Shown piece by piece: positions 9,092-62,184 of a stretch of 64,000 nt of DNA (position 1 is the stretch's first letter; every line of letters begins with the position of its first letter). The position numbers and the translations under genes were made by a program. The DNA lies in the IMG/VR virus record IMGVR_UViG_2775506814_000001, positions 3,716 through 67,715 of that record; one strand, 5' to 3'. The notes below the pieces were generated by a model. It saw only the letters and a list, made by a program, of their open reading frames with translations. It did not search any database and was not told the origin of the DNA. Source of the DNA: a virus (taxonomy: Duplodnaviria > Caudoviricetes).

Positions 9092-11614
9092 ATGCTCGAC
9101 TCCATTCGACAGCTCTGTGAAGAAGGTTTTGCCATTCACTGGCTGTATCCGCGTGCCAAAAACCCGATCGGTGACGATTGGGCCGCAAAGCCCGTGGCGA
9201 GCTTCGAAAAGCTCAAGCGATCGTACCGGCAGGGGATGAACGTTGGCGTCCGCCTGGGCAAGTGGTCGAGGATCGGCGACCTCTATCTGCACGTCATAGA
9301 CCTCGACATCCGCGACGCGTCACTGAGCGATGAGGCACGCGCCGAACTGCGCAAGATGATCAGCGAATTTGAGGATCTGCCGTCGGTCATTTCCGGGTCA
9401 GGCGGCGAAAGCCGTCATTACTATTTTCTGTCCGAAGAGGCTTTCCCGCCGAAAAAGCTTGCGCATAGCGCCGGTAAGGTCCTGGGCAAAGATGACAAGA
9501 AGCATTGGGCGTGGGAGATCGAGCTTTTCGGCACCGGCAAGCAGGTCGCGATCCCGCCGTCGATCCACCCCGATACCGGCAAGCGCTATCGTTGGGAGCG
9601 TGAGATCGACTTCGATGCGATCATTCTCGGTGTCGGCCCGGTCGTCGAAGCTGATCGCATTCGCGAACTCATCGGGCGCGAGCGCGAGATCGACATCCAG
9701 AGCGGCGACGGCGAGGATCGTTCGAAACCGCTTGGACTGACGGTCAGCGAAATCCAGCACACGTTGAAGGGGCTGCCGGTTGAATACTGGCGGGACGATA
9801 GGGAAGGGTGGTTGACCGTCGGATTTGCCATCCACCACGAGACCGGTGGCAGCCAGGAGGGATTTCAGCTCTGGCGCGACTTTTCGGCATCGTCGGACAA
9901 GTTCGACACATCTGATCAACGGCGCGTCTGGAAATCATTCCGGAACAAACCCCGGCCGATCCGCATGGCGACGCTCATGACGGCGGCGCGCGAAGCCAGG
10001 CTTGAGGCCGAATTCGAGAACCTCGACGATGCCGAAGACGACGAAGATGACTTCGATGATCTCGACCGGCCGGCAAAGCCAAAACCCAAAAAGCCGGACT
10101 ATTCGTCTGTCCTCGGAGGACCGCGCGACGCGGAGCCCGAGGAAGAGGATGACGCAGACGACTCAGACGACGAGGACGTTCCGCCTCGTGTCGTAAAACT
10201 GCGAAAGGCGGACGTTGAAGCCGAGCTTGGACATGTGCCGCCGAAGGTCAAGCGCATGAACGCCAAGCATGCAATTGCCTTCGTCAAGGGCAAATGCGTG
10301 ATCATCACCGAGCACGACGACGGAACAACCTCCTACGGCACACAGGCCGACCTCCACGCCTGGTATGAGAACGACCGTGTCGCGACGGAAAAGAGCACGG
10401 AACCGGTTTCCAAGGCGTGGATGCGCCACAAGAAGCGGCGAGACTACCCGAACGGCGTCGTCTTCGCGCCAGGTCGCGACGTTGCCGGCGCCTATAACCA
10501 TTGGAAGGGTTTCTCGGTCATCCCGAACAACAAGTACTCGTGCGCGCTATGGCTCGCCCATCTTCGGGATGTGATCTGCAGCGGAGACGAGACCAACTAT
10601 CGCTATGCGCTCGGGTGGTTTGCGCATCTGGTCCAGCGGCCGGAAGAAAAGCCCGGTGTCGCGATGATCCTGCGCGGCAAGAAGCGGATCGGCAAGGATA
10701 CGATCGCTGACTACTTCGCCAACATCATCACGCACCATCGCGTCAAAATCGCGAACCAGGACCAGTTGGTTGGGAAGTTCAACGCCCATCAGGAAAAGTG
10801 TCTCTTCCTCCATGTCGAGGAAGGCTTCTGGGCTGGTAACAAGAACGCCGACGGCGTTCTCAAGAACCTGATCACCAGCGAGCAGGTGCTAATCGAGCCG
10901 AAGGGTATCAACCCCTTCAACGTCGACAGCTGTCTACGCCTCTTCATGTCCTCGAACGAAGAATGGATCGTGCCTGCGACCGCGGATGAAGGGCGCTATT
11001 TCGTGCTCGATGTCTCGGAGGCGCGACGCAACGATCACGTCTATTTCGCCGCTCTCCGCAAGGAGATGAAGAACGGCGGCCCGGAAGCACTGCTCTGGTA
11101 TCTGCAGCACTACGACATTAGCGATTTCCAGGTGCGCAAGGTGCCGAACACAGCGGCCCTGACGCAGCAGAAGCTGGCAGGACTCAAGAACCTCGACCGC
11201 TGGTGGTTCGAAATGCTGGACACGGCCGATCTGTCGTTCGAGCACTACGTGGCTGGAGGCAGGACCGCCGACTGGTCATCGGACCACGTGCATGTTGACC
11301 GTGACGACCTGTTCGACTCCTACAATCGCTGGATCCACGGGCGCCGCTACGATGGCGACGCACTGAGTGGGCCTCTGCTCGGCAAGCGTCTGCAGGAGAT
11401 CATCGGCGACAAGTTGCAGGCCTGCTACCCGCGCCGCGGCAAGTCGCGCATCCGCCAATACATCATCCCGCCATTGGAGATCTGCCGGCGCGCGTTCGAG
11501 CGTTATCTGAACTCGGAGATCAAATGGGATGTCCCCGCCAAGGTCGTCGATGCTGACGAGCTGGACGAGGACATGGATGACGAATACGACGATCTCGATC
11601 AGGACAAAATGTGA
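9092..11614 (+). CDS. Primase-polymerase / PriCT-2 / DUF5906 NTPase (primase-helicase)
   Basis: Prim-pol (VIDLD, HYYF, VAIPPSIHPDTG), PriCT-2 (WLTVGFAIHH), Walker A GKKRIGKD. Confidence 0.92.
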   Translation: MLDSIRQLCEEGFAIHWLYPRAKNPIGDDWAAKPVASFEKLKRSYRQGMNVGVRLGKWSRIGDLYLHVIDLDIRDASLSDEARAELRKMISEFEDLPSVISGSGGESRHYYFLSEEAFPPKKLAHSAGKVLGKDDKKHWAWEIELFGTGKQVAIPPSIHPDTGKRYRWEREIDFDAIILGVGPVVEADRIRELIGREREIDIQSGDGEDRSKPLGLTVSEIQHTLKGLPVEYWRDDREGWLTVGFAIHHETGGSQEGFQLWRDFSASSDKFDTSDQRRVWKSFRNKPRPIRMATLMTAAREARLEAEFENLDDAEDDEDDFDDLDRPAKPKPKKPDYSSVLGGPRDAEPEEEDDADDSDDEDVPPRVVKLRKADVEAELGHVPPKVKRMNAKHAIAFVKGKCVIITEHDDGTTSYGTQADLHAWYENDRVATEKSTEPVSKAWMRHKKRRDYPNGVVFAPGRDVAGAYNHWKGFSVIPNNKYSCALWLAHLRDVICSGDETNYRYALGWFAHLVQRPEEKPGVAMILRGKKRIGKDTIADYFANIITHHRVKIANQDQLVGKFNAHQEKCLFLHVEEGFWAGNKNADGVLKNLITSEQVLIEPKGINPFNVDSCLRLFMSSNEEWIVPATADEGRYFVLDVSEARRNDHVYFAALRKEMKNGGPEALLWYLQHYDISDFQVRKVPNTAALTQQKLAGLKNLDRWWFEMLDTADLSFEHYVAGGRTADWSSDHVHVDRDDLFDSYNRWIHGRRYDGDALSGPLLGKRLQEIIGDKLQACYPRRGKSRIRQYIIPPLEICRRAFERYLNSEIKWDVPAKVVDADELDEDMDDEYDDLDQDKM

Positions 11615-11895
11615 GTCCGATGAAGGCGTGACGACAGCTTATCAAAGCGGGCCTTTGCCTGGGCGCCTTCCGCTGACAGCATGTCGCACTGGCTGTCGAA
11701 CAGGACACGAACACCTTCCGGAATATTGAAGCCCGTGACGAAGGCCCCCATGTAGGCGACCGCCGAGCCACCCTCTTCAAGCGTCTTCAACATTTCCCGG
11801 ATGTCCGCTCCGGTTTGCGGATGGTAGGCGCCGAGCGTTGCGGAAATCTCGCGAGCGACTTCCTGGGACGGCGCGAAAATCAGAATTCCTGGCAT
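11599..11895 (-). CDS. Hypothetical protein (weak helicase-C-like TGFNIP segment)
   Basis: SD AAAGGTGA upstream of ATG 11895. Confidence 0.55.
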   Translation of the reverse strand: MPGILIFAPSQEVAREISATLGAYHPQTGADIREMLKTLEEGGSAVAYMGAFVTGFNIPEGVRVLFDSQCDMLSAEGAQAKARFDKLSSRLHRTHILS

Positions 11896-11915
11896 GCGAA
11901 TGTCACCTTTCCGGT

Positions 11916-12125
11916 TCAGATATTGTGGAAGCCTTTCCGTTTGCTCGGCACGCATCTCCAGCGCGCAACTTGCCATTTTGGATGAGCCGCCGTCCACTGC
12001 GCGATCGTCTGCTGCGCCGTCATCATGCACTGCATCGGCGGGGCTTCCTCGATCGAGACCGTCAGGCTCTCCGACCTGCAGTGCGCCGGGGTGGCGAGAA
12101 GACAGACGATCATCAACAGTTCCAT
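11916..12125 (-). CDS. Small Cys-containing protein
   Basis: MELLMIVCLL..P.HC...CMM.AQ..IAQW...HP.W....WRC pattern. Confidence 0.7.
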   Translation of the reverse strand: MELLMIVCLLATPAHCRSESLTVSIEEAPPMQCMMTAQQTIAQWTAAHPKWQVARWRCVPSKRKGFHNI

Positions 12126-12150
12126 GGCATGGTCACCTTTTAGTTGAACG

Positions 12151-13457: not shown

Positions 13458-13477
13458 GGGCGACGACCTTCTCAAGA

Positions 13478-13628: not shown

Positions 13629-13631
13629 ATA

Positions 13632-13708
13632 TGGTAGACACGCAGGGACTCGAACCCTGGACCCCCGATTTAAAAGACCGGTGCTCTAACCAACTGAGCT
13701 ACGTGTCC
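13632..13708 (-). tRNA. tRNA-Lys(UUU)
   Basis: 77-nt cloverleaf: acceptor GGACACG/CGTGTCT, anticodon arm CCGGT-CTTTTAA-ATCGG, TTCGAGT T-loop, encoded CCA. Confidence 0.95.
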
Positions 13709-14155: not shown

Positions 14156-14362
14156 ACCTTTTAGTTGACTGTCAACCGTGCGTGGACTGCTCGACCAAGT
14201 GATTTCCATTTCTAGACCGGCCGGCAAATTCTAATGCTCGCGCAGCCTCTTGAGCCGATTTCCATGGGGCCAACCGGCCACCCCCGAATATCAACTCGTG
14301 CAATTTCTGCACACGCTCGATGCCGAAATCCCGGCCTCGAAACAGTAAGAGTCCGTTATGCC

Positions 14363-14699
14363 TGGTCTAGGTGGTGCAGGCAGCAAAAAGCTTGCCTAGA
14401 CCACTTTGCCACCGTTAACACTATGATTTCACGTAAAAATTTTAAGTGGTCTAGGTGGTCTAGGTGGTCTAGGTGGTTTTTCCCAACAACGTGCAAATGT
14501 TTCTGACTTGCCACAATTCAATTTCTGTCCGTTATGCAGCATGATGCCACTTCCATCTTGTGCGCGCGCGTATAGAAACTGCCTAGACCACCTAGACCAC
14601 CTAGACCACCCGTCTTTTCTCTAATAGGAATAAGGGGTTAAGTGGTGCAGGCAAACTCAATTTTGGTCTAGGTGGTCTAGGTGGTCTAGGTGGTCTAGG
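14363..14699. repeat. Cluster of 9-bp TGGTCTAGG iterons in both orientations (probable replication origin)
   Basis: 14 copies: 14363, 14372(var), 14395(rev), 14447, 14456, 14465, 14582/14591/14600(rev), 14643(var), 14664, 14673, 14682, 14691; AT-rich spacers. Confidence 0.85.
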
Positions 14700-17704: not shown

Positions 17705-17756
17705 CCGCGTCCGACTAATCAACAAAAACTTGAAAATCCAATCTGGGAATAGACCA

Positions 17757-18773
17757 ATGCAAAACACTGCAATCACCAATGACAACGCGGCCCTCTTTGT
17801 CGGCGCGCCCGTCTATAGCCGCAACCGGCAAGGCTATGTCACCGCGATCCGGGAACGGACGGCGCAAACCTTCATGATCGGCCGCAACATGCGGGAAAAT
17901 CACTTTGACGTTGATATCGCCTGGTGCGATGGCACATTTGCGGAACTGCCGGACGGCATGGTCAATGACTATATCGAAGAGGCCGCACGTTGCCGCATGA
18001 CGCCTATCAGCGAAGGCGAGGCGCGTGACATGTTGGCGAATGCCAAGGCCGAAAAGGCGCGCCAGCAAGATCGCGCAAGGGCTGACGCGGAACTGACACG
18101 GGAAGCCTACAAGATTTTCCGGGAAGATGCGGCACGCCGTCTGCCGGCATGGGCAAAAGCGGTCATTGTCGCTGAGCACGTCACGGACGACTCCGACACC
18201 ATGTCCGACTATTTCGCCAGCAAGAAGGGGCGCACGATCATTCTCGCCTTTTCGAAGTCAACGCGCGACCTGTTTCCGGAATTGCGCAACGCGGCCTTGA
18301 ACCATGCCGAAACCGCGCATCTCGCCACGGCGCCCGAAAATGCCGAACATCGCGAAAAGTGGAGCATGGGCGCCGGCTATTACCTCAAGGTCGGCGGACG
18401 CCATTCGACCGGATGGCAAATTCGCAAGTTGGGACTCTATGACAGGGGCGCGGACAATATCCCCATGGGCGAATGGTCCCTTGCCGAAGTCGCCGCGCCC
18501 GCGCCGGTCCAAGCCCCGGCAGATGAACCGGACGCGCCAGCTGCCGGCATGACGATTGAAAAGCACATCCACACAAAGAAAGGATTCGATATGTGGGTTG
18601 CCGTCATGTCGGAACGCGTTGACCGCGACACCTATGACTCCCTTTTGGACAAGGCGCGCGACTTCCGGGAATGGCTGGAATCTCACAACAGTTATTGCGA
18701 GGAAATCGACGCGGGCGCCTTCAAGGAAAGCGGCACGGGAGTCGCGACCTGCCTTGTTGTGATCGATCAATAA
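17757..18773 (+). CDS. Polyvalent/anti-restriction-like protein ending in a methyltransferase C-terminal remnant
   Basis: DSDTMSDYF...EHREKWSMGAGYYL domain; C-terminus FREWL...GAFKESGTGVATCLVVI. Confidence 0.7.
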   Translation: MQNTAITNDNAALFVGAPVYSRNRQGYVTAIRERTAQTFMIGRNMRENHFDVDIAWCDGTFAELPDGMVNDYIEEAARCRMTPISEGEARDMLANAKAEKARQQDRARADAELTREAYKIFREDAARRLPAWAKAVIVAEHVTDDSDTMSDYFASKKGRTIILAFSKSTRDLFPELRNAALNHAETAHLATAPENAEHREKWSMGAGYYLKVGGRHSTGWQIRKLGLYDRGADNIPMGEWSLAEVAAPAPVQAPADEPDAPAAGMTIEKHIHTKKGFDMWVAVMSERVDRDTYDSLLDKARDFREWLESHNSYCEEIDAGAFKESGTGVATCLVVIDQ

Positions 18774-19951: not shown

Positions 19952-21154
19952 ATGCAAGAGCAAATCTCATTATCCGGCAAAGCCGGAATTCCGACGCGAT
20001 ACCTAAACCGGCATTGCCTGATCACGGGCGCCACGGGAACGGGGAAGACGGTTTCGTTAATGCGGCTTGCCGAGCAATGCGCACGGCAAGGCATTCCCGT
20101 TTTTACGGCCGATATCAAGGGCGACCTGTCAGCGCTTGCCCGTTCATGCATGGTGCGCTTTCTGGATCCGTTCGGGCAGGGGAAGGGCGACGCGGTTGCC
20201 GTTCCTGTTGCCAGTTTCGGAGCGCCAGCGCTTGCCCGCATTTGCGGCTTGTCGCCTATCCAGTCCGACGCGTTGGCAATCGTGTTTCAGGTCGCGGGCG
20301 CCATCGGCGCGCCCCTTGAAACGTTGAGCGACTTGCGCGCCGTTCTTCGGACCATGGGCACAACAGCTGGATTGAGGGACTCCGACTTCGGCCACGTGTC
20401 GCGCGGCACAATCGGCATTCTGCAGCGGACCGTCACGGCGCTTGAGACTGACGGCGCGGCTTCACTGTTCCGCGCACCCTGTTTCGACGTGGCGGACCTA
20501 TTGGCGCCTCGCGTTTCCGTCCTCACGGCGGATCGGCTGATTCAATCCCCGCGCACCTATGCGGCTTTCCTGTTCTGGCTGTTGTCGGACCTTTACGAAC
20601 GGTTGCCGGAAGTCGGCGACCTGGACGCGCCCCGCCTGGTTTTCATTTTCGACGAAGCGCATTTGCTTTTTGAGGACGCGCCGCGCGCCCTGGTCGACAA
20701 GCTGGCGCAAATGGCAAGGCTGATCAGGTCCAAGGGCGTTGGCGTTGTCTTTGCCTCGCAATCCGCCGACGACATACCCGACACCATCCGCGCGCAGCTG
20801 GCGACGCGGATTGAGCATAGCCGGGAATTGCCGATTGGCACGGCGCGGGTCCGCACGTTGGATCAAGCCGGCCGGCCGGTTGATGCGGGCGCCGTCCCAA
20901 TCGATATGCCGGATTGCCCACTAGGTGCCCTTGAGGAGGGCGAGCGCCCCATGCCCGCGCCGATTGATCAGGCGGACACGCCCCGCGCCCCATGGGCGGC
21001 TATGGGCAAGAGCGAGGCCGCGCTATTGGGCGTCATCCTCGCGCTAGTCGGCGCGGCGGGATTCGGTGCCTTGACGGCATGGCAAAGCGGATCGGCCGGC
21101 AAGCTTGCCGTGATCGCGGTTGCCATCATTGCGGCGGGGTTGGCGCGCCGCTAA
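19952..21154 (+). CDS. HerA/DUF853 (YjgR-like) P-loop ATPase with two C-terminal TM helices
   Basis: NRHCLITGATGTGKT, ADIKGDLS, LPEVGD, FIFDEAHLLF, RLIRSKGVGV. Confidence 0.85.
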   Translation: MQEQISLSGKAGIPTRYLNRHCLITGATGTGKTVSLMRLAEQCARQGIPVFTADIKGDLSALARSCMVRFLDPFGQGKGDAVAVPVASFGAPALARICGLSPIQSDALAIVFQVAGAIGAPLETLSDLRAVLRTMGTTAGLRDSDFGHVSRGTIGILQRTVTALETDGAASLFRAPCFDVADLLAPRVSVLTADRLIQSPRTYAAFLFWLLSDLYERLPEVGDLDAPRLVFIFDEAHLLFEDAPRALVDKLAQMARLIRSKGVGVVFASQSADDIPDTIRAQLATRIEHSRELPIGTARVRTLDQAGRPVDAGAVPIDMPDCPLGALEEGERPMPAPIDQADTPRAPWAAMGKSEAALLGVILALVGAAGFGALTAWQSGSAGKLAVIAVAIIAAGLARR

Positions 21155-22654: not shown

Positions 22655-23296
22655 GTGGCATCCGAATCCGAAAACCCGCCAAACAGGAAGGTCGGATACG
22701 CCCGCGTTTCGACGAGCGAGCAGAACCCGGACATGCAGATCGCGGCGCTCAAGGCCTATGGTGTCCCGGAGGCGTTGATCTTCGTCGACAAGGCGAGCGG
22801 CGGCACGATGCAGCGCCCGGAATTCATCAAGGCGGTTCGGGTCTGCCAGGTCGAAAAGACCGAGTTTGTGGTCTGGAAGCTCGACCGTCTCGGGCGCACC
22901 CTCGGCGGCATACTTGAGACGCTGGAACTGCTGACCGATCGCGGGATCGAGTTCGTCAGTCTGACGGAGCGGATCGACACCAAAGGCCCGATGGGCAAGG
23001 CGATGGTGCGATTGCTTGCCGTGTTCGCCGAGCTGGAGCGCGACCTGATCCGCGAGCGCACGAAGGCGGGCATCGAGCGGGCGAAAGAGCGCGGTGAACA
23101 CGGCGGCCGGCCGCGAGCGATGACGGACGAGCGGATCGCCAAGGCTGTGGAGATGTTGGCGACCGGCGAGCGCGGCAACGCGATCTGGAAGGCGCTCAAG
23201 GGTTTGCCTGGGCCGAAGATCAGCCGCTCGGCCTATTATGCCTGGCAGCAGGAATGGGATGTCGAGAACCGCTCGCCCGATACGGTCGGCGAGTAG
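22655..23296 (+). CDS. Serine recombinase (resolvase/invertase)
   Basis: GYARVST, VVWKLDRLGR, AELERDLIRERT.AG, GRP, C-terminal HTH. Confidence 0.95.
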   Translation: MASESENPPNRKVGYARVSTSEQNPDMQIAALKAYGVPEALIFVDKASGGTMQRPEFIKAVRVCQVEKTEFVVWKLDRLGRTLGGILETLELLTDRGIEFVSLTERIDTKGPMGKAMVRLLAVFAELERDLIRERTKAGIERAKERGEHGGRPRAMTDERIAKAVEMLATGERGNAIWKALKGLPGPKISRSAYYAWQQEWDVENRSPDTVGE

Positions 23297-24829: not shown

Positions 24830-25444
24830 TTGCGAAACTTATATGACGTTCTCGGCATCTCGCGAGATGCGACGACCGAGGACATTCAAAAGGCAAAACG
24901 GCGCCTTGCGAGAGCGACCCATCCAGATGTGGCGGGTGGCAGCAAGGAAGCTTTCCAGGCTGTGGAAGAAGCCGCTCGCGTTCTTGGTGACCCCGAAACC
25001 CGTCTGCTCTACGACGCCACCGGCCACACCCCGCATGACGGCCTGGATGAGGCGGCAGAGGGTATCGTCTGGGCCGAGGTCGGGAAGGCCATGATGTCGT
25101 CGGACAAGCCGGAAAGGCTCGATATTGTCGGGCTTGCCCGCAACTCGATCAGTGACACGATTCAGACGGCGCGGAGCAACATCAAAAAATTGACGGCTGC
25201 CAAGGTGAACGCTGCCCGGATGGCCGGCAGGTTCAGAACCTCGCTGCCGAACGACCCGATCGCGCAGCGTTTCGCCAAGATCCAGCGCGACGCCGATGCC
25301 GAGATCGAGTCGACCAAAGCCAAGATTAAGGTATTCGAACGGGCCTTGCAGATCGCCGAGGCCTACGAATTTGAGCGCGAGCCGACCCCCTCAGCCACAG
25401 CATGCGATGGGTGGGTCTTTGTCCAAACGCCGAGGACGTGGTGA
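24830..25444 (+). CDS. J-domain (DnaJ-like) protein
   Basis: LYDVLGISRDAT.EDI.KA.RRLA...HPD...F..V.EA..VL.DP..R..YD. Confidence 0.9.
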   Translation: MRNLYDVLGISRDATTEDIQKAKRRLARATHPDVAGGSKEAFQAVEEAARVLGDPETRLLYDATGHTPHDGLDEAAEGIVWAEVGKAMMSSDKPERLDIVGLARNSISDTIQTARSNIKKLTAAKVNAARMAGRFRTSLPNDPIAQRFAKIQRDADAEIESTKAKIKVFERALQIAEAYEFEREPTPSATACDGWVFVQTPRTW

Positions 25445-33991: not shown

Positions 33992-34279
33992 ATGGCACCG
34001 AAAGTTGGTCATAACAGCCAGGCCGGTGGCGTCGCTGCCGGGCAACTCAAGGCGTTCGTGGAACGCATCGAGCGCCTGGAAGAGGAAAAGAAGGTGATCG
34101 CCGACGATATTAAGGAGGTCTACGCCGAAGCTAAGGGCAACGGCTTCGACACCAAGATCCTCAAGAAGGCGGTCGCTCTCAGAAAGAAGGACCCGGCCGA
34201 ACGGGAGGAAGAGGAGACTATCCTCCAACTCTATCTGCAGGCGCTCGGCATGCTCCCCCAGGAAGAGGACGATATCTGA
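33992..34279 (+). CDS. gapR: GapR-like nucleoid protein (DUF2312/UPF0335)
   Basis: [36 protein letters not shown]. Confidence 0.92.
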
Positions 34280-34509
34280 TGACCATCCGAATGACAAAGC
34301 CGCAGACCGCGCTGCTCGGAGAGTTGAACCGGAACGGTGACAAGGGCGTGATCAAGTCCACGTCGGACGGCTCCGCCTGCGCCCTGGTGGAAAGCGGGCA
34401 CGCCATCTGGCAGCAGAAATACAGCGGCAACCGGACCGGCCTCTTGGTGATCACGCCCATCGGTAGGGGCCACGCCATGGCGTGGCGGGCCGCGCGCTGT
34501 GACCTTTGA
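34279..34509 (+). CDS. Hypothetical protein (wHTH-like)
   Basis: MTKPQ..LL...ITPIGR. Confidence 0.6.
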   Translation: MTIRMTKPQTALLGELNRNGDKGVIKSTSDGSACALVESGHAIWQQKYSGNRTGLLVITPIGRGHAMAWRAARCDL

Positions 34510-34729
34510 GCAGGCCCTTGCCGATGTCGAGAGCAGGGGCTTGCTCGTCCACTACCTGGTCTTCGGCGATGACAACCACTGGCGCTGCACGCTCCGCAAG
34601 CGGGGAGGTGACTGGGTGCTCAGGAGAGCAGGCGGGCAGACCGGTTATGTTCTGCGCGGGCAGGGCAGGACGCCGACGCAGGCGATCACGAACGCCCTGA
34701 AAAAGGATCACTCGGACGTGCTCGGATGA
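34499..34729 (+). CDS. Hypothetical protein ending in DHSDVLG
   Basis: Coupled ORF. Confidence 0.7.
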   Translation: MTFEQALADVESRGLLVHYLVFGDDNHWRCTLRKRGGDWVLRRAGGQTGYVLRGQGRTPTQAITNALKKDHSDVLG

Positions 34730-34971
34730 ACGAACTCGAAACCCTCCTGCGCCGCGAGGCGCGTGCCGGCAACATCAGTCACCTGAGCATCGCGTTCAGG
34801 GGAGGCCAGTTCGAGGCCGTTTACCGCGGAACGGACGATCCCGTTTACGCCATCGGTCGCGCTCCCGATATCTGCGACGCCATCACGAAGGCCCTTCGGG
34901 ATGGCCGGAAGTTGTCACAACCGAAACCCAAAAAGGCGGCACGTGGCCGCTATTCAGATGTGTTGGGGTGA
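34726..34971 (+). CDS. Hypothetical protein ending in RYSDVLG
   Basis: ATGA-coupled ORF. Confidence 0.75.
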   Translation: MNELETLLRREARAGNISHLSIAFRGGQFEAVYRGTDDPVYAIGRAPDICDAITKALRDGRKLSQPKPKKAARGRYSDVLG

Positions 34972-35274: not shown

Positions 35275-35696
35275 CCCGGTTCTTCGCTCACCCGGAAAGC
35301 GACTGTCTGTTCGCCCTGCGCGACGGCGAAGACCCGCCAACAGACGGGCTTGTCGAAGAAGTCACGCCGGCAGACTTCTTCGAACTCGCATGCCGTGGCG
35401 ACGCCGACCGCGCTGTCTCAACTCTACTCAATGCCATGTTGCAGTCAGGCCGTTTTGATGGGCTCACCTTTTGGCGTTGGAAAAGCGGCAAGGCGACGAT
35501 TTCGCTGCGGCGGGAAGGTACGTCGAACGCCTTCAACTGCAGCCAGAGATTACACCCCAATGATCCCCCATCTCTGCAGCTCTATGCCTTCCTGCGTGAG
35601 ACATTTCGGCACGAGTTCATCCGGAACGAAGTCGTCGCGCCACACCCCAAGTCAGCCCCCGCCGCCCGCAAATCGAGGTTCGAAGACACTATCTGA
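35271..35696 (+). CDS. Hypothetical protein
   Basis: HPESDC motif; coupled ORF. Confidence 0.7.
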   Translation: MTRFFAHPESDCLFALRDGEDPPTDGLVEEVTPADFFELACRGDADRAVSTLLNAMLQSGRFDGLTFWRWKSGKATISLRREGTSNAFNCSQRLHPNDPPSLQLYAFLRETFRHEFIRNEVVAPHPKSAPAARKSRFEDTI

Positions 35697-36958
35697 TGAT
35701 CACGCTCCATGAAGGCGACAGCCGTAAAATCCTTTGCCAGATGATCGACCGCGGCGAGCGCGTTCATTCGGTCGTCTGCGACCCACCTTATGGTCTGACC
35801 AGCATCGAGAAGCGTTTCGGGAAGGACGGCGCCGCGCCGGCCCGCAGCGAGAAGAACGACGGCAGTTTCGGCCGTATATCGAAAGGCTTCCTCGGAATGA
35901 AGTGGGACGGCACTGGAATCGAACGCGACCCCGAGTTCTGGCGCCTCGTCTTTGAGGTTCTGTTGCCGGGCGGCTATGTCTTCGCCTTCTCGGGCGCCCG
36001 CACCGGCCACTGGCAGGCCTGCGCCATGGAGATGGCCGGATTTATCATGCATCCGATGCACGCGTGGGTCTATTTCCAAGGGTTCCCGAAGGCGCACGCG
36101 GCCGACAAGGCGATCGACAAGCATCTCGGCAAGAAAGGGTCCGTCGTTCCGAGCGGCAACCCGGTCAAGCGGATGATCCCTGGCGCCGACCAGGTCGCTA
36201 CCGGGTCATGGGAGAAGAACAACGGGCGGACCTACCAGCCGGGCATTTACGAGCCCGCGACGGACGAGGCGGTCGAGTGGTCGGGCTATGCCTACGGGAC
36301 ACAGGCCCAGAAGCCTGCCCTTGAACCCATCTTCCTCGGCCAGAAGCCATTCGATACCAAGAACGGGGCAGCCAACCTCCTCAGGCACGGCGTGGGCGCT
36401 GTAAACATCGACGGGTGTCGTGTGCCCGGTGGACGCTACCCGTCAAACCTTCTTCTCGATGGGTCGCCTGAAGTCGTTGCTATGTTCCCGCGCGAAGCGG
36501 GGGCCTCGGCACCGGTTAAGGGAACTGAGCCGTCATCGGTGACCAAAGACATTTATGGAAAATTCAATGGGCGCGTTCCGGGCACCTTCTTCAATGACAG
36601 CGGCTCGGCCGCGCGCTTCTTCCATCATTTCCCGCTCGATACGGACCCGCTTATCTGCAACCCGAAGGCCGGCAAGAAGGATCGGGCCGGAACGGACCAT
36701 CCGACCGTCAAGCCGATCAAGCTGCTGCGCTATCTGATCCGCCACATCACGCCGCCAGGCGGGACGGTGCTCGACATGTTTGCCGGCAGCGGCACGACAG
36801 GCCAGGCCGCGATCGAGGAAGGGGTACGCGCCGTGCTGATCGAAATGGACCCCGGCTACAGCGCCTTCATCCGTCGGCGCTTCGGCTTGGCGTCGAGAAG
36901 ACGTGACTACAGCGACGTGCTCGGCCCGGCTTCGCGCTACGCCGATGTGCTCGGGTGA
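35696..36958 (+). CDS. N6-adenine/N4-cytosine DNA methyltransferase (beta class)
   Basis: DPPY, HPTVKP, VLDMFAGSGTTG. Confidence 0.92.
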   Translation: MITLHEGDSRKILCQMIDRGERVHSVVCDPPYGLTSIEKRFGKDGAAPARSEKNDGSFGRISKGFLGMKWDGTGIERDPEFWRLVFEVLLPGGYVFAFSGARTGHWQACAMEMAGFIMHPMHAWVYFQGFPKAHAADKAIDKHLGKKGSVVPSGNPVKRMIPGADQVATGSWEKNNGRTYQPGIYEPATDEAVEWSGYAYGTQAQKPALEPIFLGQKPFDTKNGAANLLRHGVGAVNIDGCRVPGGRYPSNLLLDGSPEVVAMFPREAGASAPVKGTEPSSVTKDIYGKFNGRVPGTFFNDSGSAARFFHHFPLDTDPLICNPKAGKKDRAGTDHPTVKPIKLLRYLIRHITPPGGTVLDMFAGSGTTGQAAIEEGVRAVLIEMDPGYSAFIRRRFGLASRRRDYSDVLGPASRYADVLG

Positions 36959-54039: not shown

Positions 54040-54468
54040 TTACATCTCGTCGTCGTTGTCGGAACCGGTGTTGCCGGCGCCGTCGTTGTCGGTCGTCTCG
54101 GTCGTCTCGGTACCGGCGTTCTCGGTCTTCGCGACCTTCTCCGCCTTCGGCTTCCGACCGCCACGCCCCTTCACCGCATTCGGATCCCCCGCAGCCCCGG
54201 ACGAGGGTGGATTCACGGTCTGCGCCGGAGCACTTTCGACGACCTTTGCCGGAGCGGCCATCTTGCCGTTGCGGCGCTCGAAGATCGCGATCTCATCGTC
54301 GGTCGCCTTGCGCGCCGCCTGCAGGCCCTCGAGTCGCGCGAACTCGTCTTCGGGACACATGAACAGGCTGATGTCCTTCTTGGTCGAGGCCGGGACGACC
54401 TCCGGTGCGCCTTTCTCCTTGCGATGGATCGTGCAAATCGCGAAGGCCGTGATCAATGCTGCTGCCAT
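54040..54468 (-). CDS. Hypothetical protein (post-capsid, disordered C-terminus)
   Basis: SD GGAG; position after the capsid gene. Confidence 0.75.
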   Translation of the reverse strand: MAAALITAFAICTIHRKEKGAPEVVPASTKKDISLFMCPEDEFARLEGLQAARKATDDEIAIFERRNGKMAAPAKVVESAPAQTVNPPSSGAAGDPNAVKGRGGRKPKAEKVAKTENAGTETTETTDNDGAGNTGSDNDDEM

Positions 54469-56184: not shown

Positions 56185-57471
56185 TCAGGCGGCCTTGCGC
56201 GGCCCCTTGATCCGGGTGAGGGTTGCATCCACGCGCGACTCCTCGTCGTCGCTCGGCGCGCCGATGTCCGGGTTCTTGCCCGAGTCCATCGCATCACGGA
56301 AGGTCTTGCCGGTCGTGTTCTCGGCGCTTTCGGCCTTCTCCTCCGGCATGTCGCCGAGCATTTCGACGACAGTATCGGAATCGAGAGTCGCGAACTTGTC
56401 GCCGAGCGCCATCTTCAGAGCCATCTTGGGACGGCTCTTGCCGTTGTCGGAATTGACGATCGCAGCGATGCGCGAGCGCTCGGCCGTCGCACCGGCCTTG
56501 AGACCTTCGGTCTTGCCCTCTTCACGAGCCTTGTCGATGGACGCCTGATCGACGGCCGTCTGCTCACTGGTGTTCTGTCCCATCGCATTTCCCTTTCGAT
56601 TGGTGGACAGTTCTGCCGCAAACGCGGCGAGGCCGTCTTCGAGCGGGCCGATCTCGTCGGCGAGCCCGATGGACGTTGCTTGCGAGGCTGTGTAGGTCAG
56701 CGCCTCCGTATCCCGGATGACCTGTTCCTCCATGCCTCGATTCCGTGCCACGATCGACACGAACATGGCGCCAAGCTCATCAATGCGAGCCTGGATGCGA
56801 GCCTTCACATCATCTGGCAGCGGTTCATACGGGTTGCCGTCGACCTTGTGCTTGCCGAAGTGGATGAACGTGACCGCGATGCCGACACGATCGAGCGCCT
56901 TGCTCACATCGATATGAGCGGTCACCACGCCGATCGAGCCAACGCCGCCTGTTCTCGACACGACGATCGTGTCGGCGGCCGAGGCGATCGAATAGGCTGC
57001 CGAATAAGCGCTTTCGGCAGCAAACGCCCGCATCGGTTTTTGGCCTCGCCCTGCGTAGATCATGTCGACGAGATCGAAGTTCCCGGCGACCTCGCCACCT
57101 GGCGAGTCGATGACGAACGCGATCCCGTTGACTTTCGGATCGTTGAGCCCCCGCGAAAACGCACGCGCGATGTAGTCGTAGCCAGTCGCCCAGTCGTAGA
57201 GCTGCCAAGGGAAGTTGTTCAGCAGCACGCCGCGAACCGGAATTTGCAGGACACCATCTTTCACGACGTAGGGCCGATAGGCCGCTCGCCAGTCATTTTC
57301 TTCCGGCCAGAAATCGTCGATGAGCGCCATGCGGTCGCTCGACATTACGATCTTGTCGTAGACCTTCGCTCCCTCAACAACCAGGGACTGAAAGCGGGTT
57401 GCCTGTTCGATGGCGACCAGAGCCGGCTGCCCGTCGAAACGGGCGATCAGGGGGTTAAGCGGCGTTGTCAT
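56185..57471 (-). CDS. S49 prohead protease / scaffold
   Basis: IDSPGG, AYSAAYSIASAA, GSIGV. Confidence 0.92.
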   Translation of the reverse strand: MTTPLNPLIARFDGQPALVAIEQATRFQSLVVEGAKVYDKIVMSSDRMALIDDFWPEENDWRAAYRPYVVKDGVLQIPVRGVLLNNFPWQLYDWATGYDYIARAFSRGLNDPKVNGIAFVIDSPGGEVAGNFDLVDMIYAGRGQKPMRAFAAESAYSAAYSIASAADTIVVSRTGGVGSIGVVTAHIDVSKALDRVGIAVTFIHFGKHKVDGNPYEPLPDDVKARIQARIDELGAMFVSIVARNRGMEEQVIRDTEALTYTASQATSIGLADEIGPLEDGLAAFAAELSTNRKGNAMGQNTSEQTAVDQASIDKAREEGKTEGLKAGATAERSRIAAIVNSDNGKSRPKMALKMALGDKFATLDSDTVVEMLGDMPEEKAESAENTTGKTFRDAMDSGKNPDIGAPSDDEESRVDATLTRIKGPRKAA

Positions 57472-59188
57472 TGTTCTCCCCTGCGGCAGCGCTAACGCTT
57501 CCAGAAGCTGCGTTCACCGAGTTGTCCTGCGTGTCGGCGGCATCCCGCAAGCCGAGTTCTTCGGCTCGGTTGCGCTCGCGGGCGCGTTGCTTCAGAACCT
57601 GCCGCCAATCGCCGCCGAGCCGCGCGACTTCGCTTTCGAGCGTCGTCATATTGAACTTCATGCGCAGCGAGGCGGCTTGCGTTTCCTTGAGCTGGTCGAT
57701 CTGGCCGAGCGCGGCGCCGATCCACTCGCATTCAGTGATGGCTTCCATGACCAAGGGCTTGTAGAGCCAGGCGCTGTCATTCCCGAGCCGCCGCGGCAGT
57801 GACTCGATCATGCCACTGTTGATTGCTTCTTCGAGCCACAAGCGATAGACGATCGACGCGAAGGCGTCGGCGAGCAGGCCCTTGCAGGCCAGCATGTGCT
57901 TCCAGGTCTCGCCCATGGCCGCCTGCGCGGACGAATAGTTGGTCTCGCTGTAGTCGCGCGACAACTGCTCGTAGGAGACGTTGAGACAGGCAGCGATATG
58001 ACGGAGGAGCGACTTTTCAAGGTCGGTCCCGAGCGGGCCACCCTTCGCGGCCGGCTGCATATGCAGCTTCGAGCCTGGCGGTAGATGCGGAATGCGGACA
58101 CCGCCAAGTTGGAACTGGTCGCTCGCACCGATGTAGGAATCGACCGCCCCGAGGTAGGCCGCCATGTAGCTGGTAACGCTCTCGTCTATCTGCTGCGACA
58201 GGTCACCGTTGCCGACGTTGCCGCCGCCGAGGCGCTGGAAAATGACCGAGGTATCGAGATCGGATTCGATCGAGGCCGCGTAGGTCGCATTGACGACCGC
58301 ATTCTGCAAAACGATGTCGCGGAAATCCTTCGTCATCCGCATCTCTTTGAGCGCGGCAACCAATGGTGCCATGCCCCGCGTCTGATTGGGGCGGGTCTGC
58401 TCGTAAAGATGGATGACCTGCGGGCGCCCCCACGGCTTCTTGGCCGGGATCCGCTCCCACTCGTATTGCGACGCGAGCCAGTATGCTCCTGGCGGGGCTT
58501 TTCTCACGTGGTAGGCAACAGGGACATGTCGTTTGTTGACCTCGACCCCACCAACGATGAACGGGTTCGAACCTCCGAGTGCCGGGTTCGACAGCCGGTC
58601 AAGGTCGAGCATGCGGATCGCCGTGTTGAACGGGCGGATTTCCGCGTCGTCCCGGATCCATTCAACCGCGGCCAGAACCTCACCTGTGGCGAAATACGTG
58701 CCGACGGCCTGACGAATGAGCTGCGTGAAAGTGTTCCGTCGACCCCCGTCAACCCAATGCGCGCGCGAGTTTGCCCACAGCCCGAACTTGGTTTCGACTT
58801 CTGTCTGGAACTCTTCCTCCCAGACTTCGTCGTCCTTGCCGAAGACGATCTGCGACACGGGCTTGGCGTTGAGAATGTATTTGCCGCCGACGATGTGGTC
58901 CTTGTGGATCGTCTGCCCGGAACGCACATAGGCATCATTGTTGATCGTGTCGCGGACACGCGCATCTGCGAGGCGTTTTTGAGGCAGGATGTCCTGATCG
59001 GCAGACCGGCTCGGCGGGTTCCACATCGCGAGTTCGCGCGACTTCCGGGACGCCCCCTCATAGGCATCGCCAACAATCGCCATCTCCTTGCTCGCGCCGC
59101 CCGGCACCCTGACACCGGACGGCGCGAGCGTGCCGAGGTCGTCGGACGACGGCCCCAACACATCCGCGTATCGCTGTGGATTCTTCAC
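57455..59188 (-). CDS. Portal protein (lambda family)
   Basis: Q.RG, SYEQLSRDYS.TNYSSA, ID.LKE. Confidence 0.93.
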   Translation of the reverse strand: MKNPQRYADVLGPSSDDLGTLAPSGVRVPGGASKEMAIVGDAYEGASRKSRELAMWNPPSRSADQDILPQKRLADARVRDTINNDAYVRSGQTIHKDHIVGGKYILNAKPVSQIVFGKDDEVWEEEFQTEVETKFGLWANSRAHWVDGGRRNTFTQLIRQAVGTYFATGEVLAAVEWIRDDAEIRPFNTAIRMLDLDRLSNPALGGSNPFIVGGVEVNKRHVPVAYHVRKAPPGAYWLASQYEWERIPAKKPWGRPQVIHLYEQTRPNQTRGMAPLVAALKEMRMTKDFRDIVLQNAVVNATYAASIESDLDTSVIFQRLGGGNVGNGDLSQQIDESVTSYMAAYLGAVDSYIGASDQFQLGGVRIPHLPPGSKLHMQPAAKGGPLGTDLEKSLLRHIAACLNVSYEQLSRDYSETNYSSAQAAMGETWKHMLACKGLLADAFASIVYRLWLEEAINSGMIESLPRRLGNDSAWLYKPLVMEAITECEWIGAALGQIDQLKETQAASLRMKFNMTTLESEVARLGGDWRQVLKQRARERNRAEELGLRDAADTQDNSVNAASGSVSAAAGENNDNAA

Positions 59189-59394
59189 GGGCGCCCCCAG
59201 AATTGCATCGGGGCAATGGACGTTTCATTCACCTGCCGGCGAAGATCGGCGATGTAATTCTGCAAGCGAATAACGTTGGCGGCCGAATAGCGGATGCGCT
59301 CACCGTTCTGGTCAACGACCTCCAGAACGCCGCGGCCCGTCTGCCAATCATGCAGGGCGTTTTCAGCGTCCGTAAGTCGTTCCTGCAGAGTCAT
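59185..59394 (-). CDS. Head-tail joining protein (gpW)
   Basis: AE.ALH...TG......DQNGE...Y. Confidence 0.88.
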   Translation of the reverse strand: MTLQERLTDAENALHDWQTGRGVLEVVDQNGERIRYSAANVIRLQNYIADLRRQVNETSIAPMQFWGRP

Positions 59395-59468
59395 GGCGCC
59401 GCCATAGGTTTTGAAATGATCACTAGGCTATAATCAACATATGGTTGGTTAGCAACTTTTTTGTTGAT

Positions 59469-61568
59469 TTAGGTGAGGCGCTTTGCGAGCGCGCTGAGGT
59501 CATATTTCTTGGGTTTTGCAGGCATGACCGGGTTCTCATCCTGCTCGCCGAAAACCAGTGCGTTCTTGTCCCACTCGGCTGCCCACGGCGGGGGCTTATC
59601 CCAGAAACCGGCACGCAAGGCCCGGACTTCCTCATGGCGCAGCAGCGCCAGGGCGTAATAGGACAAGTCCCACGCCTCGTTATGGACCCGGTGATTGGCA
59701 GGCTTCTCCCAACCTTTGTCCGTGCGCACTTCAGATGTCATCTGAGTGTAGAACCACTTCGGCGCCCAGATCGGGAATGTCCAGTATCCGCCACCTTTAT
59801 CCTGACGCGAGAGAAAGCCGTTCAGCGCATCCTTCATATCGTTCGAGTTGATGAAGCCGACAGGCACATCACCACGCGCCGCCGTGAATTTGTCCTTCTG
59901 GTTCGCGTCAGGAAACTTCTTCGTATAGGCGGGCACCGTTTTCAGTGGGTCGCCTTTGACGAGCTGGAAACGGTTCGATAGGCCGTGCTCGGTGTGAAGC
60001 CGCCGCCAGAACTCCCTGGCCTGGATCGAGACACCTTCCTTGCCGCCATAGTCGCAGCCGGTCAACTTGATTGACATGCGACGGCCTGACTGATCGGCAA
60101 GGGGGTAGCTCCGTTTGATCACTTCACCGATCAGCAGATCCCAGTCTTCGGCATAGGCGCTCGGATCGAGCGGCAGGCGTTCATCGTCCTCGTCCCGCCG
60201 CTCGCTCTTGAGAAGACGGAACATGTCGATGACCCAGGCATCGTTGTGCAGGCCGAAACCGGTGACCTGCACAACAAACCCGGACCGGGAGCCCGACTGC
60301 ACGTCAACCGTTGCGATGATAAAACGGACACCGGGCGGAACCGTCGGATTCTCTTTCGTCGTTCCCCAGTCCTCGGCGTGCTCCATCAGATTTTCAGATG
60401 AGCGGGATTCCGCCAATGCCTTCGGTAGATAAGCCTCGCCCTGATCCGCCGTTACGGTCTTCTTCAGGGGGTTCTCGTCGCCGGTGTTTTCGTAGACATC
60501 GACGGCCTGCAGATAGGCGAAAACAAGGCTCTGCCAATCCTGGAATGCTGCGGCCGGGCCTTTGAGCCAAAACGAGGCGATATCCGTCCGGATCGGCTGT
60601 CCGACGATCGATCCATCCGGCAGCCATAGCATGCCCTCGCGGATCCACCGCCCTTTCGAGTTGAGTTCGCGCTTGAATGACGGGTCAATGTCCATCCGGC
60701 AATGCGGACATTGCATCGTCACCATCTGCGCCGCTTCCCAGTTGTCCGCGGACTTCGGGTATTTCAGAAGGCCGAAATGCGGCTCAAACGGGTTGTCGCA
60801 GTAGGGGCAGCGCCAGTTCCATCTGCGGCGGTCGCCTCGATTGTAAAGGGAGAGGATGCCGCCATGCACAGGCGGGGCCTCATGCGGGGTCTTGCGGATC
60901 CATTTAGGATCCCTGATCTCGCGACCAGGCGACGACTCCGCGAACGTCATTCCGAAACGCTTGAAGGTTTCTGAGCGTTTCATCGCCAAATCGAACGCCG
61001 GCCCTTCCGACGCGATGTCATCCTCCATGCGGTCATAATCAGCCAGGCACAACCTGGGTATTGTTTTTCCGGAAAGCTCGGTGATCGACGGCCAGCGGAG
61101 AAGCAGACGCATCCCGCTTTTGAATCTCTTGTCGAACACGTTGTCGGAATGGCGACCGGGGATCAGGCGGCTCCCCAACTCTTTGGTGTTGCGGAAAACC
61201 TTGCCGAGATCGCCCTGAGAGATATCGCGAGACACTTCCTTCGTCATGCCGATGAACATCATGTCGGCGGGGTCGCAGATGGCAGTATGAGTCAGCCAGT
61301 TGTAGAAAATGTCCGTTTTGCCAATTCGCGCCGCTCCGGCAAGGACGACCCCTCTGAAGTCCAAACTCGTCAGGGTGTCCATAACCTCGACGAGATACGG
61401 CGTTTTCTCGTTTTTCCAATAGCCGACGTAGGAGCCGGGGTTATCCAGATATCGGTACTTCGTTGCCGCCTCAGACACGGTAATACGCTCTGGCGGGCGC
61501 ACCATCTCTGACGCTGCGATAACGATTTCTTCCAGGGTCGCAAATTCATGCGGACGGGACAGTTTCAT
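59469..61568 (-). CDS. Terminase large subunit (lambda GpA family)
   Basis: TPYLVE.MD, GAARIGKT, ESSP, DRRRW.W.CPYC, TVDVQ, NEAWD. Confidence 0.95.
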   Translation of the reverse strand: MKLSRPHEFATLEEIVIAASEMVRPPERITVSEAATKYRYLDNPGSYVGYWKNEKTPYLVEVMDTLTSLDFRGVVLAGAARIGKTDIFYNWLTHTAICDPADMMFIGMTKEVSRDISQGDLGKVFRNTKELGSRLIPGRHSDNVFDKRFKSGMRLLLRWPSITELSGKTIPRLCLADYDRMEDDIASEGPAFDLAMKRSETFKRFGMTFAESSPGREIRDPKWIRKTPHEAPPVHGGILSLYNRGDRRRWNWRCPYCDNPFEPHFGLLKYPKSADNWEAAQMVTMQCPHCRMDIDPSFKRELNSKGRWIREGMLWLPDGSIVGQPIRTDIASFWLKGPAAAFQDWQSLVFAYLQAVDVYENTGDENPLKKTVTADQGEAYLPKALAESRSSENLMEHAEDWGTTKENPTVPPGVRFIIATVDVQSGSRSGFVVQVTGFGLHNDAWVIDMFRLLKSERRDEDDERLPLDPSAYAEDWDLLIGEVIKRSYPLADQSGRRMSIKLTGCDYGGKEGVSIQAREFWRRLHTEHGLSNRFQLVKGDPLKTVPAYTKKFPDANQKDKFTAARGDVPVGFINSNDMKDALNGFLSRQDKGGGYWTFPIWAPKWFYTQMTSEVRTDKGWEKPANHRVHNEAWDLSYYALALLRHEEVRALRAGFWDKPPPWAAEWDKNALVFGEQDENPVMPAKPKKYDLSALAKRLT

Positions 61569-62184
61569 CGTCAAGCGTCGCCAGATAGCTTTCGGTTGCG
61601 CTGGATTGCGCCTGGTGCACAAGTGATGTCTGGATGTCGCTCATCAGACGGTCGGACAGTTCGACGACAAGGTTGCGCTGATCGGGAGTGAGCCCGAGGC
61701 TCTCTTCAACTGTGTCCGCCCAGAGTTGCGTTGCCTTCTTGATTGCTTTGAAGGTCTCGCCGAGCACGTCCAAGACCGACGCCGTCGACCACAGATCGCC
61801 AGCGGCAGCGCGGAACTTCAGTTCCTTCATCTTGGCATTCCAGAAGGACTCTCGAAGTCGTTCGGGGAGATCGTCGGCCTTGAGGGAGGCGAGGGCGGCC
61901 GACAACTCGCGCTCGGGGCGAACCAGATAACCGGCAGCCGTTCGCAGATCGTAGAACTTGCGAACCCCTTTCCGACTTTTGATGGGGCACGGGCGCAAGG
62001 CGCTGGCAACATCCTTGCGGTTCATGCCGAATGCCGCAGCGAGCCAGTCAACGGATACACCATCCGTCGGAGGCATAGCCTCTTCAGCACCGTGTTCCTG
62101 AACAACAGCGGGTGCTGTCTGTCCTCTGCGGACAGGGCCACCATCATCAAAGCCGAGCACATCGCTATAGCGTCCACCGTACAT
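61546..62184 (-). CDS. Terminase small subunit (DUF1441-like)
   Basis: HTH, AAGYLV.P, FW.A, GDLW.T..V; upstream of terL. Confidence 0.85.
   Translation of the reverse strand: MYGGRYSDVLGFDDGGPVRRGQTAPAVVQEHGAEEAMPPTDGVSVDWLAAAFGMNRKDVASALRPCPIKSRKGVRKFYDLRTAAGYLVRPERELSAALASLKADDLPERLRESFWNAKMKELKFRAAAGDLWSTASVLDVLGETFKAIKKATQLWADTVEESLGLTPDQRNLVVELSDRLMSDIQTSLVHQAQSSATESYLATLDDETVPSA

Follow-up and report, generated by a model that had tools for sequence, protein, structure and literature searches.

Why does one prophage place the same six-residue peptide on proteins as different as a primase, a DNA methylase, a portal protein and a small terminase? The locus that raises this question lies in a window of 64,000 nucleotides (the whole stretch of DNA that was analysed), which belongs to IMG/VR record IMGVR_UViG_2775506814_000001 and corresponds to C1:768052-832051 of a 5.45-Mb genome, 64% G+C. 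Nearly all of a prophage of ~66 kb, here called the prophage, is inside the window, and positions are counted from the first letter of the window. An original prediction, made from the letters alone, had listed a shared tag in seven copies on six proteins, and every copy was recovered in frame at its predicted place. The pattern [YH]-[SA]-[DS]-V-L-G occurs in seven copies in six proteins, on both strands and within open reading frames (ORFs) supported by the G+C content of third codon positions, one tag-bearing peptide being KAARGRYSDVLG. The carriers are the primase, two small ORFs (ORF 34499 and ORF 34726), an N6/N4 DNA methylase with two copies, the portal and the small terminase TerS (Table 1).

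Across 99 ORFs (20,445 residues), 0.0087 matches were expected from composition against the seven observed, and 2000 within-protein shuffles gave a maximum of one match, which was reached in 16 of the 2000. This comparison with shuffled proteins had been proposed along with the original prediction, and it came out in favor of the tag. When we scored the proteins with a position matrix, the seven sites scored 17.5-20.3 and the next best site 6.2, and this gap between the seven sites and the rest indicates that there are exactly seven copies. A six-frame pattern search of the whole 5.45-Mb genome returned seven matches, all inside the prophage, and a looser pattern gave five matches in the prophage versus 0.52 expected. 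A second cluster of the generalised motif at C1:4.38-4.41 Mb falls inside ordinary ORFs and was set aside as chance. The codons vary among the copies at every position (TAT/TAC, TCG/TCA/AGC/GCC/GCG, GAC/GAT, GTG/GTC, CTC/TTG and GGA/GGG/GGC), indicating that selection acts on the peptide; conservation at the peptide level, not as a DNA repeat, was what had been predicted. An origin by chance, as a DNA repeat or as a small mobile insertion without protein-level function would have only the shortness of the motif in its favor. With the observed and expected numbers given above, all genome matches inside the prophage, all copies read in frame in the sense direction of genes on either strand and with differing codons, and a position that is kept in 95 of 120 primase homologues, we regard such an origin as practically negligible.

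Three copies are C-terminal, two are N-terminal and two are internal (the primase linker and the first methylase copy), and all of them finish in glycine. Each copy contains one acidic residue, except the primase copy, which has none. Five of the seven copies follow lysine/arginine runs or arginine (KPKKPD, KKD, ARGR, RRRD and SR), and the others follow QR and GGR. The two small tagged ORFs, for which structure-atlas look-ups returned no family, match each other in BLASTP with an E value of 0.013 and 14 of 33 residues identical, and this similarity suggests that they may be distant paralogues. To call the six carriers unrelated, as had been done at the outset, was thus slightly too strong.

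All seven copies lie outside the borders of Pfam domains. First, the primase tag is located between PriCT_2 (residues 228-299) and DUF5906 (527-633), and an AlphaFold2 model of this protein (67 sequences, mean predicted local distance difference test score, pLDDT, of 87.6) shows values below 50 at residues 314-339 and 341-361. Second, the N6_N4_Mtase match of the methylase stops at residue 390, before both tags. Third, the portal domain begins at residue 50 and the Pfam domain of TerS at residue 44, each behind the N-terminal tag, and in the AlphaFold2 model of TerS (70-sequence alignment, mean pLDDT 85) residues 1-42 have pLDDT values of 51-65 and no secondary structure. Finally, of the 81 residues of ORF 34726 the structure-atlas model aligns with the first 69, which leaves the tail outside the fold. 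Judging by the domain borders and the low pLDDT values, the tags sit on flexible tethers, which agrees with the earlier description of a short linear motif outside folded domains.

The same models bear on whether the tails act within their own proteins, as DNA mimics or autoinhibitors on the DNA-binding surface, with no common reader. Nearly all carriers bind DNA, many tails in related phages are strongly acidic, and an AlphaFold2 model of T7 gp2.5 has the C-terminus in the positive groove of the same protein (excerpt of PMC12339929). In the models of TerS and the primase the tag is not docked on its own fold, and the flanks of the tag are basic in the prophage. Self-binding would also leave unexplained why one precise motif recurs on unrelated folds and why it changed in concert in the prophage, and we consider it quite improbable.

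Variants of the tag in related phages

The relatives of the prophage found by tblastn are Casjensviridae, that is, the Chi-like phages that had been predicted; of those with names, Rhizobium phage RHph_X2_30 is the closest. Close relatives are rare in reference genomes, with a weak match in 2 of 26 other genomes of the family and a good match in 1 of 400 other genomes of the order, and the scan of genome contigs gave one locus. Examination of the Chi-like relatives, which had been suggested together with the prediction, revealed tags at orthologous places with changed sequence. A pattern that demands an aromatic first residue misses the variants of phages DSS3-P1 and Sano, and those were obtained by reading protein ends.

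In RHph_X2_30, F-x-D-[IV]-[LF]-G was found in frame ~12 times. The primase linker and the N-end of TerS have one copy each, the C-end of the methylase has two, the portal has one at the N-end and another near the C-end, and the C-ends of small ORFs, among them the orthologue of ORF 34499, account for six. This orthologue (17725-17967 of RHph_X2_30) ends in DFLDILG and that of G416, a 74-kb provirus of the same subgroup, ends in EFADLLG, both tagged at the same end as in the prophage. G416 bears F-x-[DE]-L-L-G on its portal, its methylase and four small ORFs. The methylases of RHph_X2_30 and DSS3-P1 have two copies of their own tag at the end, as in the prophage, and the methylases of G416 and G245 end in LFEELLG and DVYLELLGRK, respectively.

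In DSS3-P1, [ILV]-[DE]-[DA]-L-L-G is present on 10 proteins, namely TerS, the portal, the primase-helicase (three copies), two methylases, the single-stranded DNA-binding protein (SSB), the exonuclease, a 182-residue protein, the protein in the position of lambda FI and a GapR-like protein. Sano has DDIGL on the SSB, on TerS (at the C-end) and on two other proteins. Phage Chi has ..[DE][DE]EV at the free C-terminus of at least seven proteins (primase, gp4, exonuclease, SSB, TerS, gp18 and gp42), with near-forms on the helicase and gp52. In all three of these phages the SSB ends in the same motif as the other tagged proteins of that phage. The portals of RHph_X2_30, L019, L020, L021, L023, L025 and DSS3-P1 each carry their own variant at the N-end, and in L020, L021, L023 and L025 that variant is common to TerS and the portal or found on the portal alone. 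IMG/VR relatives show YHPLLG with ISELLG, FEDLLG, and EIDELAG with EILELAG, in each case common to TerS and the portal of the same contig.

The motif of the 95 primase homologues mentioned above lies at the same aligned place of the linker and is nearly always F-D-D-[LIV]-L-G. Within the first 30 residues of TerS, a tag-like motif was found in 50 of 150 representatives (2 of those 50 correspond to a helix of the helix-turn-helix, HTH), and 52 of the 150 have an acidic C-tail with a hydrophobic end instead. Among relatives the tag switches between the N- and C-ends of TerS and of the GapR-like protein. N-tagged TerS proteins also share a second, C-terminal element, [ST]-E/R-S-[YQ]-hydrophobic-x-x-L-D-D (61546-61650 (-) in the prophage), which may be a real large-terminase contact.

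Among the primase and TerS homologues, Y-S/A-D-V-L-G with a basic flank is found only in the prophage, where all seven copies have it, and the primase tag of the prophage aligns column for column with the acidic F-D-D-[LIV]-L-G of its homologues. Judged from these alignments, the prophage recoded all seven copies together, from F-D-D to Y-S-D and from an acidic to a basic flank; of all the observations, this joint change points most strongly to a single reader for the copies. A peptide-level motif on disordered tethers is thus found at orthologous positions across phages and changes in concert within a genome. A phage-wide, position-conserved motif with changed sequence is what a docking code with one reader predicts. 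The phage-wide docking code of the original prediction stands as far as its phage-wide range and its conserved positions are concerned; that the tag binds anything, and that it has a single partner, we infer from sequence.

The comparison also bears on two other functions that had been raised. A tyrosine-kinase site has lost ground, since the aromatic position is mostly F in relatives and I, L, V or M in some of them. The tag could also be a degron or adaptor tag that delivers its carriers to host ClpXP, ClpAP or Lon, and like known degrons it is terminal, exposed and portable. The tag does not resemble C-terminal degrons of the Ala-Ala type. In ssrA-like degrons a non-polar C-terminus is recognised by ClpX or ClpA on proteins that undergo turnover, and four of the seven tag copies are not C-terminal. 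Carriers of the tag include the portal, a stable structural protein, and the primase, where it lies within a linker, and its places are N-terminal, internal or C-terminal; it varies among phages of related hosts and is recoded in the prophage, which would be odd for a conserved host protease. The degron reading is weakened by these placements and appears very improbable.

Table 1. Positions of the tags, candidate readers, second-class tails and further genes in the window.
Feature	Position (strand)	Motif	Gene and place
Tag 1	10100-10117 (+)	YSSVLG	Primase (PrimPol/D5-type, 9092-11614 (+)), Y337-G342, linker, after KPKPKKPD
Tag 2	34709-34726 (+)	HSDVLG	ORF 34499-34729 (+), 76 residues, no family; H71-G76, last six residues
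Tag 3	34951-34968 (+)	YSDVLG	ORF 34726-34971 (+), 81 residues, no family; Y76-G81, last six residues, after KPKKAARGR
Tag 4	36908-36925 (+)	YSDVLG	N6/N4 DNA methylase, 35696-36958 (+); Y405-G410, first of two C-end copies
Tag 5	36938-36955 (+)	YADVLG	Same methylase; Y415-G420, last six residues
Tag 6	59153-59170 (-)	YADVLG	Lambda-family portal, 57455-59188 (-); Y7-G12
Tag 7	62152-62169 (-)	YSDVLG	Small terminase (TerS, DUF1441 type), 61546-62184 (-); Y6-G11
Family-B-like DNA polymerase	2744-4861 (-); 2744-4939 (-) for the 731-residue protein		731 residues; candidate reader; untagged in all genomes read
Large terminase (TerL, gpA family)	59469-61568 (-)		Candidate reader; never clearly tagged
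Second-class tail	5525-5539 (-)	SFDDI	Enc34/gp2.5-type SSB, gene 5522-6268
Second-class tail	11597-11611 (+)	Acidic, ending DQDKM	Primase C-end
Second-class tail	34262-34276 (+)	EEDDI	GapR-like protein, gene 33992-34279
Second-class tail	54043-54057 (-)	NDDEM	142-residue lambda-FI-position protein, gene 54040-54468
S49 prohead protease	56185-57471		Adjoins portal gene
Integrase	62819-64000 and beyond		Right end of prophage
SNF2 helicase and repressor-like gene			Immediately left of window

A second class of acidic tails

The prophage has a second, shorter class of tails, in which acidic residues are followed by I or M at the very C-end. These tails are found on the SSB, the primase, the GapR-like protein, the FI-position protein, a ParB-like protein and two proteins of 141 and 163 residues; the original inventory held all seven tag copies and missed this class. 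In the prophage, RHph_X2_30 and G416 taken together, the second-class tail consists of acidic residues and then I, M or F, and it is borne by the SSB, the primase, the FI-position protein, the GapR-like protein and proteins of 150-170 residues. In DSS3-P1 and Chi, the orthologues of these carriers bear the single tag type of that phage, indicating that the two classes are related. The C-ends of primase homologues read DDFDI, DDLDDL, EEDDL or the full DDLLG. The tails of the SSB and the FI-position protein co-vary among phages, with EDEV/EDEV in Chi, DDLLG/EDLLG in DSS3-P1, DDDI/EEDI in RHph_X2_30 and EDVA/NDLA in L023.

The GapR-like protein matches PF10073 (E value 8e-34, with GapR_DNA-bd at residues 15-86) and is conserved in RHph_X2_30, DSS3-P1, G245 and G416; the DSS3-P1 orthologue has an N-terminal tag in place of the acidic tail. 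In G416, the SSB orthologue (C1:61547-62209) contains one in-frame TGA within the alignment of the search output.

Known docking tails and candidate readers

Among known systems, phage T7 provides the closest precedent for a polymerase as the reader. In T7, acidic C-terminal tails dock the SSB gp2.5, which ends in EDGDF, and the primase-helicase gp4, which ends in NDTDF, on the gp5 DNA polymerase. A basic patch at the front of the polymerase is where the tail of gp2.5 is anchored, and a peptide with DTDF serves as a mimic of the gp4 tail (excerpt of PMC12339929). As in T7, one short tail motif is present on unrelated proteins of one phage, and the prophage encodes an SSB of the gp2.5-like/Enc34 type. 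The number of carriers differs, with two in T7 versus six to ~12 here, including TerS, the portal, methylases and small ORFs. In addition, the tag of the prophage is also found at places other than the C-end, does not depend on a free carboxylate, lacks an acidic character and finishes in L-G where the T7 tails have an aromatic residue. The second-class tails of the SSB (SFDDI) and the FI-position protein (NDDEM) do have the T7 feature of a hydrophobic C-end with a free carboxylate. Of the T7-type carriers in the prophage, the primase is tagged in its linker and the SSB has the second-class tail only, whereas both end in the full tag in DSS3-P1.

A similar arrangement is found in T4, where gp33 and gp55 bind the clamp gp45 via a C-terminal LDFL and couple late transcription to replication (excerpt of PMC9690074). 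LDFL and the tag are both short hydrophobic/acidic motifs on flexible ends, in which acidic residues are followed by hydrophobic ones. The difference is that no phage clamp was found in the prophage, ~40 of whose 99 ORFs were covered by the Pfam scan: the only DNA_pol3_beta match of the genome is host dnaN (C1:1688-2047), and the gp45-type family PF02916 gave no match in a search without a positive control. The bacterial clamp-binding consensus has a leading Q and then L-x-L-F, whereas the tags of the prophage all lack a Q at that place and finish in L-G. The C-terminal tip of bacterial SSB is an interaction hub for DNA-metabolism proteins, and like the tags it is short, combines acidic with hydrophobic residues and is carried on a flexible linker. 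A single tail is recognised by many partners there, while many tails would probably have one reader here, and the tags do not copy the end of the host SSB, which is DDEIPF.

Acidic LxxLL target peptides of papillomavirus E6 contain L-D-D-L-L-G and L-Q-E-L-L-G (excerpt of PMC5760104). This is the letter pattern of the tags of DSS3-P1 and its relatives, which makes it plausible by analogy that the tag binds as a short amphipathic helix in a groove. The E6 case comes from a virus of eukaryotes and its host, which share no evolutionary link with these phages, and the analogy is one of shape only.

Lambda shares the head module of the prophage (gpA-type TerL, portal, S49 protease, gpD-like and gpE-like proteins), and the leader of its portal gpB (residues 1-22; L028, 2836-2901) contains IPTLLGP ahead of the portal domain, which matches YADVLGP of the prophage portal in both place and shape. 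Since 22 residues are removed from the N-terminus of gpB (PMC3224144, Table 2, as excerpted) and the S49 protease is encoded next to the portal gene in the prophage, the tag could be a processing site or leader that is cut by the prohead protease or by another protease. Three carriers, however, stop exactly at the glycine with nothing left to remove; in relatives the tag is also borne by the SSB, exonuclease, primase and methylases, none of which belongs to the prohead; and the tag flips between the two ends of TerS and of the GapR-like protein. Cleavage fits the portal only, where it could be an addition by which the tag is removed after use, and as an account of the whole set it seems improbable to about the same degree as self-binding. 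Lambda differs from the prophage in other respects. No proteome-wide tag is evident, with 'IP.LL' giving six six-frame matches, of which three fall in genuine frames; gpA binds Nu1 and gpB through different ends; and FI has no sequence similarity to the FI-position protein of the prophage. The C-end IPGLL of Nu1 resembles the gpB leader, and given the number of 'IP.LL' matches this resemblance is a lead only.

Based on these comparisons, we suggest, with a probability of about 0.6, that the tag is a docking motif that arose from an SSB tail of the T7 type, came to include DNA modification and packaging proteins and is recognised by one reader. The tag, [R/D]-[Y/H]-[S/A]-[D/S]-V-L-G, would be the version in this prophage of a motif that Chi-like phages attach to proteins acting on phage DNA, at flexible ends or in flexible linkers. 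Its shape is hydrophobic-x-x-hydrophobic-L-G, and it would probably form a short amphipathic helix that is glycine-capped when bound. The motif would be linked in evolution with the tail at the C-end of the gp2.5-like SSB. Within this phage group the device would have spread to DNA methylases, small early proteins, TerS, the portal and the FI-position protein, such that one reader would gather the proteins for replication, modification and packaging on phage DNA that has just been made. A stronger form is that the tag is a private peptide address code, in which one phage-encoded reader brings the replisome, DNA-modifying enzymes, small early proteins, TerS and the portal together on newly replicated DNA and so couples replication, methylation and packaging physically. 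Such a code could be rewritten genome-wide, all seven tags and presumably the reader having been switched together from F-D-D-[ILV]-L-G to R-Y-S-D-V-L-G; we hold this form tentatively, at less than even odds.

In the papers covered by the literature searches no description of such a shared tag was found, and none of those matched by the tag strings concerned phages. The statement that no system like this had been described was nevertheless too strong, since the T7 gp2.5/gp4 tails and the T4 LDFL motif are of the same kind on fewer proteins. If there is one reader, replication, modification and packaging would be wired by a six-residue code that annotation pipelines overlook, in a phage group that is large and widespread (Salmonella phage Chi, roseophages, rhizobiophages and Xylella phages). 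The proposal, if true, would offer a testable handle on the handover of newly replicated phage DNA to the packaging machine, extend the T7 acidic-tail principle from two proteins to a dozen and hint at what the cleaved-off leader of the lambda portal does. The evolution of interaction specificity and the building of orthogonal docking tags would gain a natural example in which a motif and its reader were recoded together, and a switch of the code could insulate the assembly line of the phage from co-infecting relatives.

As for the reader, the DNA polymerase comes first among the candidates, and even so it is doubtful. It has no Pfam match, archaeal family-B polymerases matched it weakly (E value ~1e-3), and of its 5042 homologues at E <=1e-10 a few are named DNA polymerase B. 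From these matches, a large and poorly annotated phage PolB family appears to replace the family-A polymerase of other Chi-like phages. The large terminase is the other leading candidate, though an unlikely one, and another phage protein is unlikely to the same degree. Only gpA is listed as a partner of all three of Nu1, gpB and FI in lambda (PMC3224144, excerpt with Table 2 and text), and a gpA-Bet match from a one-vector two-hybrid is also in the lambda interaction list of that source. TerS, the portal and the FI-position protein, the three packaging proteins tagged in the group, match these three listed partners of gpA. A host protein is distinctly unlikely, and the same can be said of there being no common reader at all.

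Several observations weigh against the proposed docking motif with one reader or against particular readers. First, the polymerase is of family A in DSS3-P1, Chi and Sano and of family B in the prophage, RHph_X2_30, G245, G416 and G418, and the tags are alike despite this difference, which argues against the polymerase as a conserved reader. Second, APSE-1 combines the same replication module with a packaging set like that of P22, and F-D-D-[LV] is common to its SSB and exonuclease only; this pattern argues against the large terminase as the ancestral reader, which would more likely be in the replication module or in the host. Third, there is no excess of prophage-specific changes at conserved columns in the polymerase, the primase or TerL. 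The polymerase has four such changes, which are conservative and like those of other alignment members, the primase six, TerL 5 of 122, the portal 2 of 111, the protease 0 of 43, the SNF2 helicase 1 of 49 and the exonuclease 2 of 35, and no protein stands out. Fourth, the tag of the prophage is not acidic and its flanks are basic, so that simple T7-type electrostatics cannot be the mode of binding. Fifth, the prophage, RHph_X2_30 and G416 hold two tail classes with a stable split of carriers, and the coexistence of two classes may mean two readers. Finally, hydrophobic-x-x-hydrophobic-L-G is a common helix-end pattern, which is also found at the start of a J-domain (24845-24856), in the HTH helix of TerS and at the end of GapR.

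Other candidate readers were considered and set aside. The J-domain protein (24830-25444 (+), PF00226, E value 1e-16) has no counterpart in RHph_X2_30; its first helix starts with LYDVLG, which is tag-like probably by chance. A HerA_C/DUF853 P-loop ATPase (19952-21154 (+)) with a hydrophobic, membrane-anchor-like C-end is present in the prophage, RHph_X2_30 and G416. It was not found with the prophage protein as query in DSS3-P1, Sano and G245 and was rejected as a general reader, and a role as the reader within the subgroup of the prophage, RHph_X2_30 and G416 is a possibility. The GapR-like protein is an unlikely reader, as it bears tails or tags itself, and the SNF2 helicase and VRR-NUC are more likely clients, with tag-like ends VWDDEE (Chi) and SDADII (G245).

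Gene modules and other features of the prophage

The Pfam scan covered ~40 of the 99 ORFs. The head module of the prophage is lambda-like, with a DUF1441 TerS, a gpA-family TerL, a lambda-family portal, an S49 protease, a gpD-like decoration protein, a gpE-like capsid protein and a small gene in the gpW position that matches a gene annotated as head-tail adaptor in relatives. The replication module comprises a DUF2800 exonuclease, the Enc34/gp2.5-type SSB, the family-B-like polymerase, VRR-NUC and the PrimPol/D5-type primase. A Rv2179c-like 3'-5' exonuclease (E value 2e-52) is encoded at 4867-5448 (-), between the polymerase and SSB genes, and a Tad2-like (Thoeris anti-defence 2) domain match is located at 7740-8150 (-) with an E value of 7e-12.

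Between ~12 and 33 kb, where a resolvase (22655-23296) and a DUF1643 protein are encoded, there are few counterparts in RHph_X2_30, and this stretch may be an inserted island. Two tRNA genes were found inside the prophage, Pro-TGG at 62494-62570 (+) and Lys-TTT at 13632-13708 (-). Small ORFs on both strands at 14356-14624 contain HLDH/LDHL repeats, with HLDH occurring five times versus 0.04 expected, and these repeats point to a short tandem DNA repeat near the tRNA-Lys gene.

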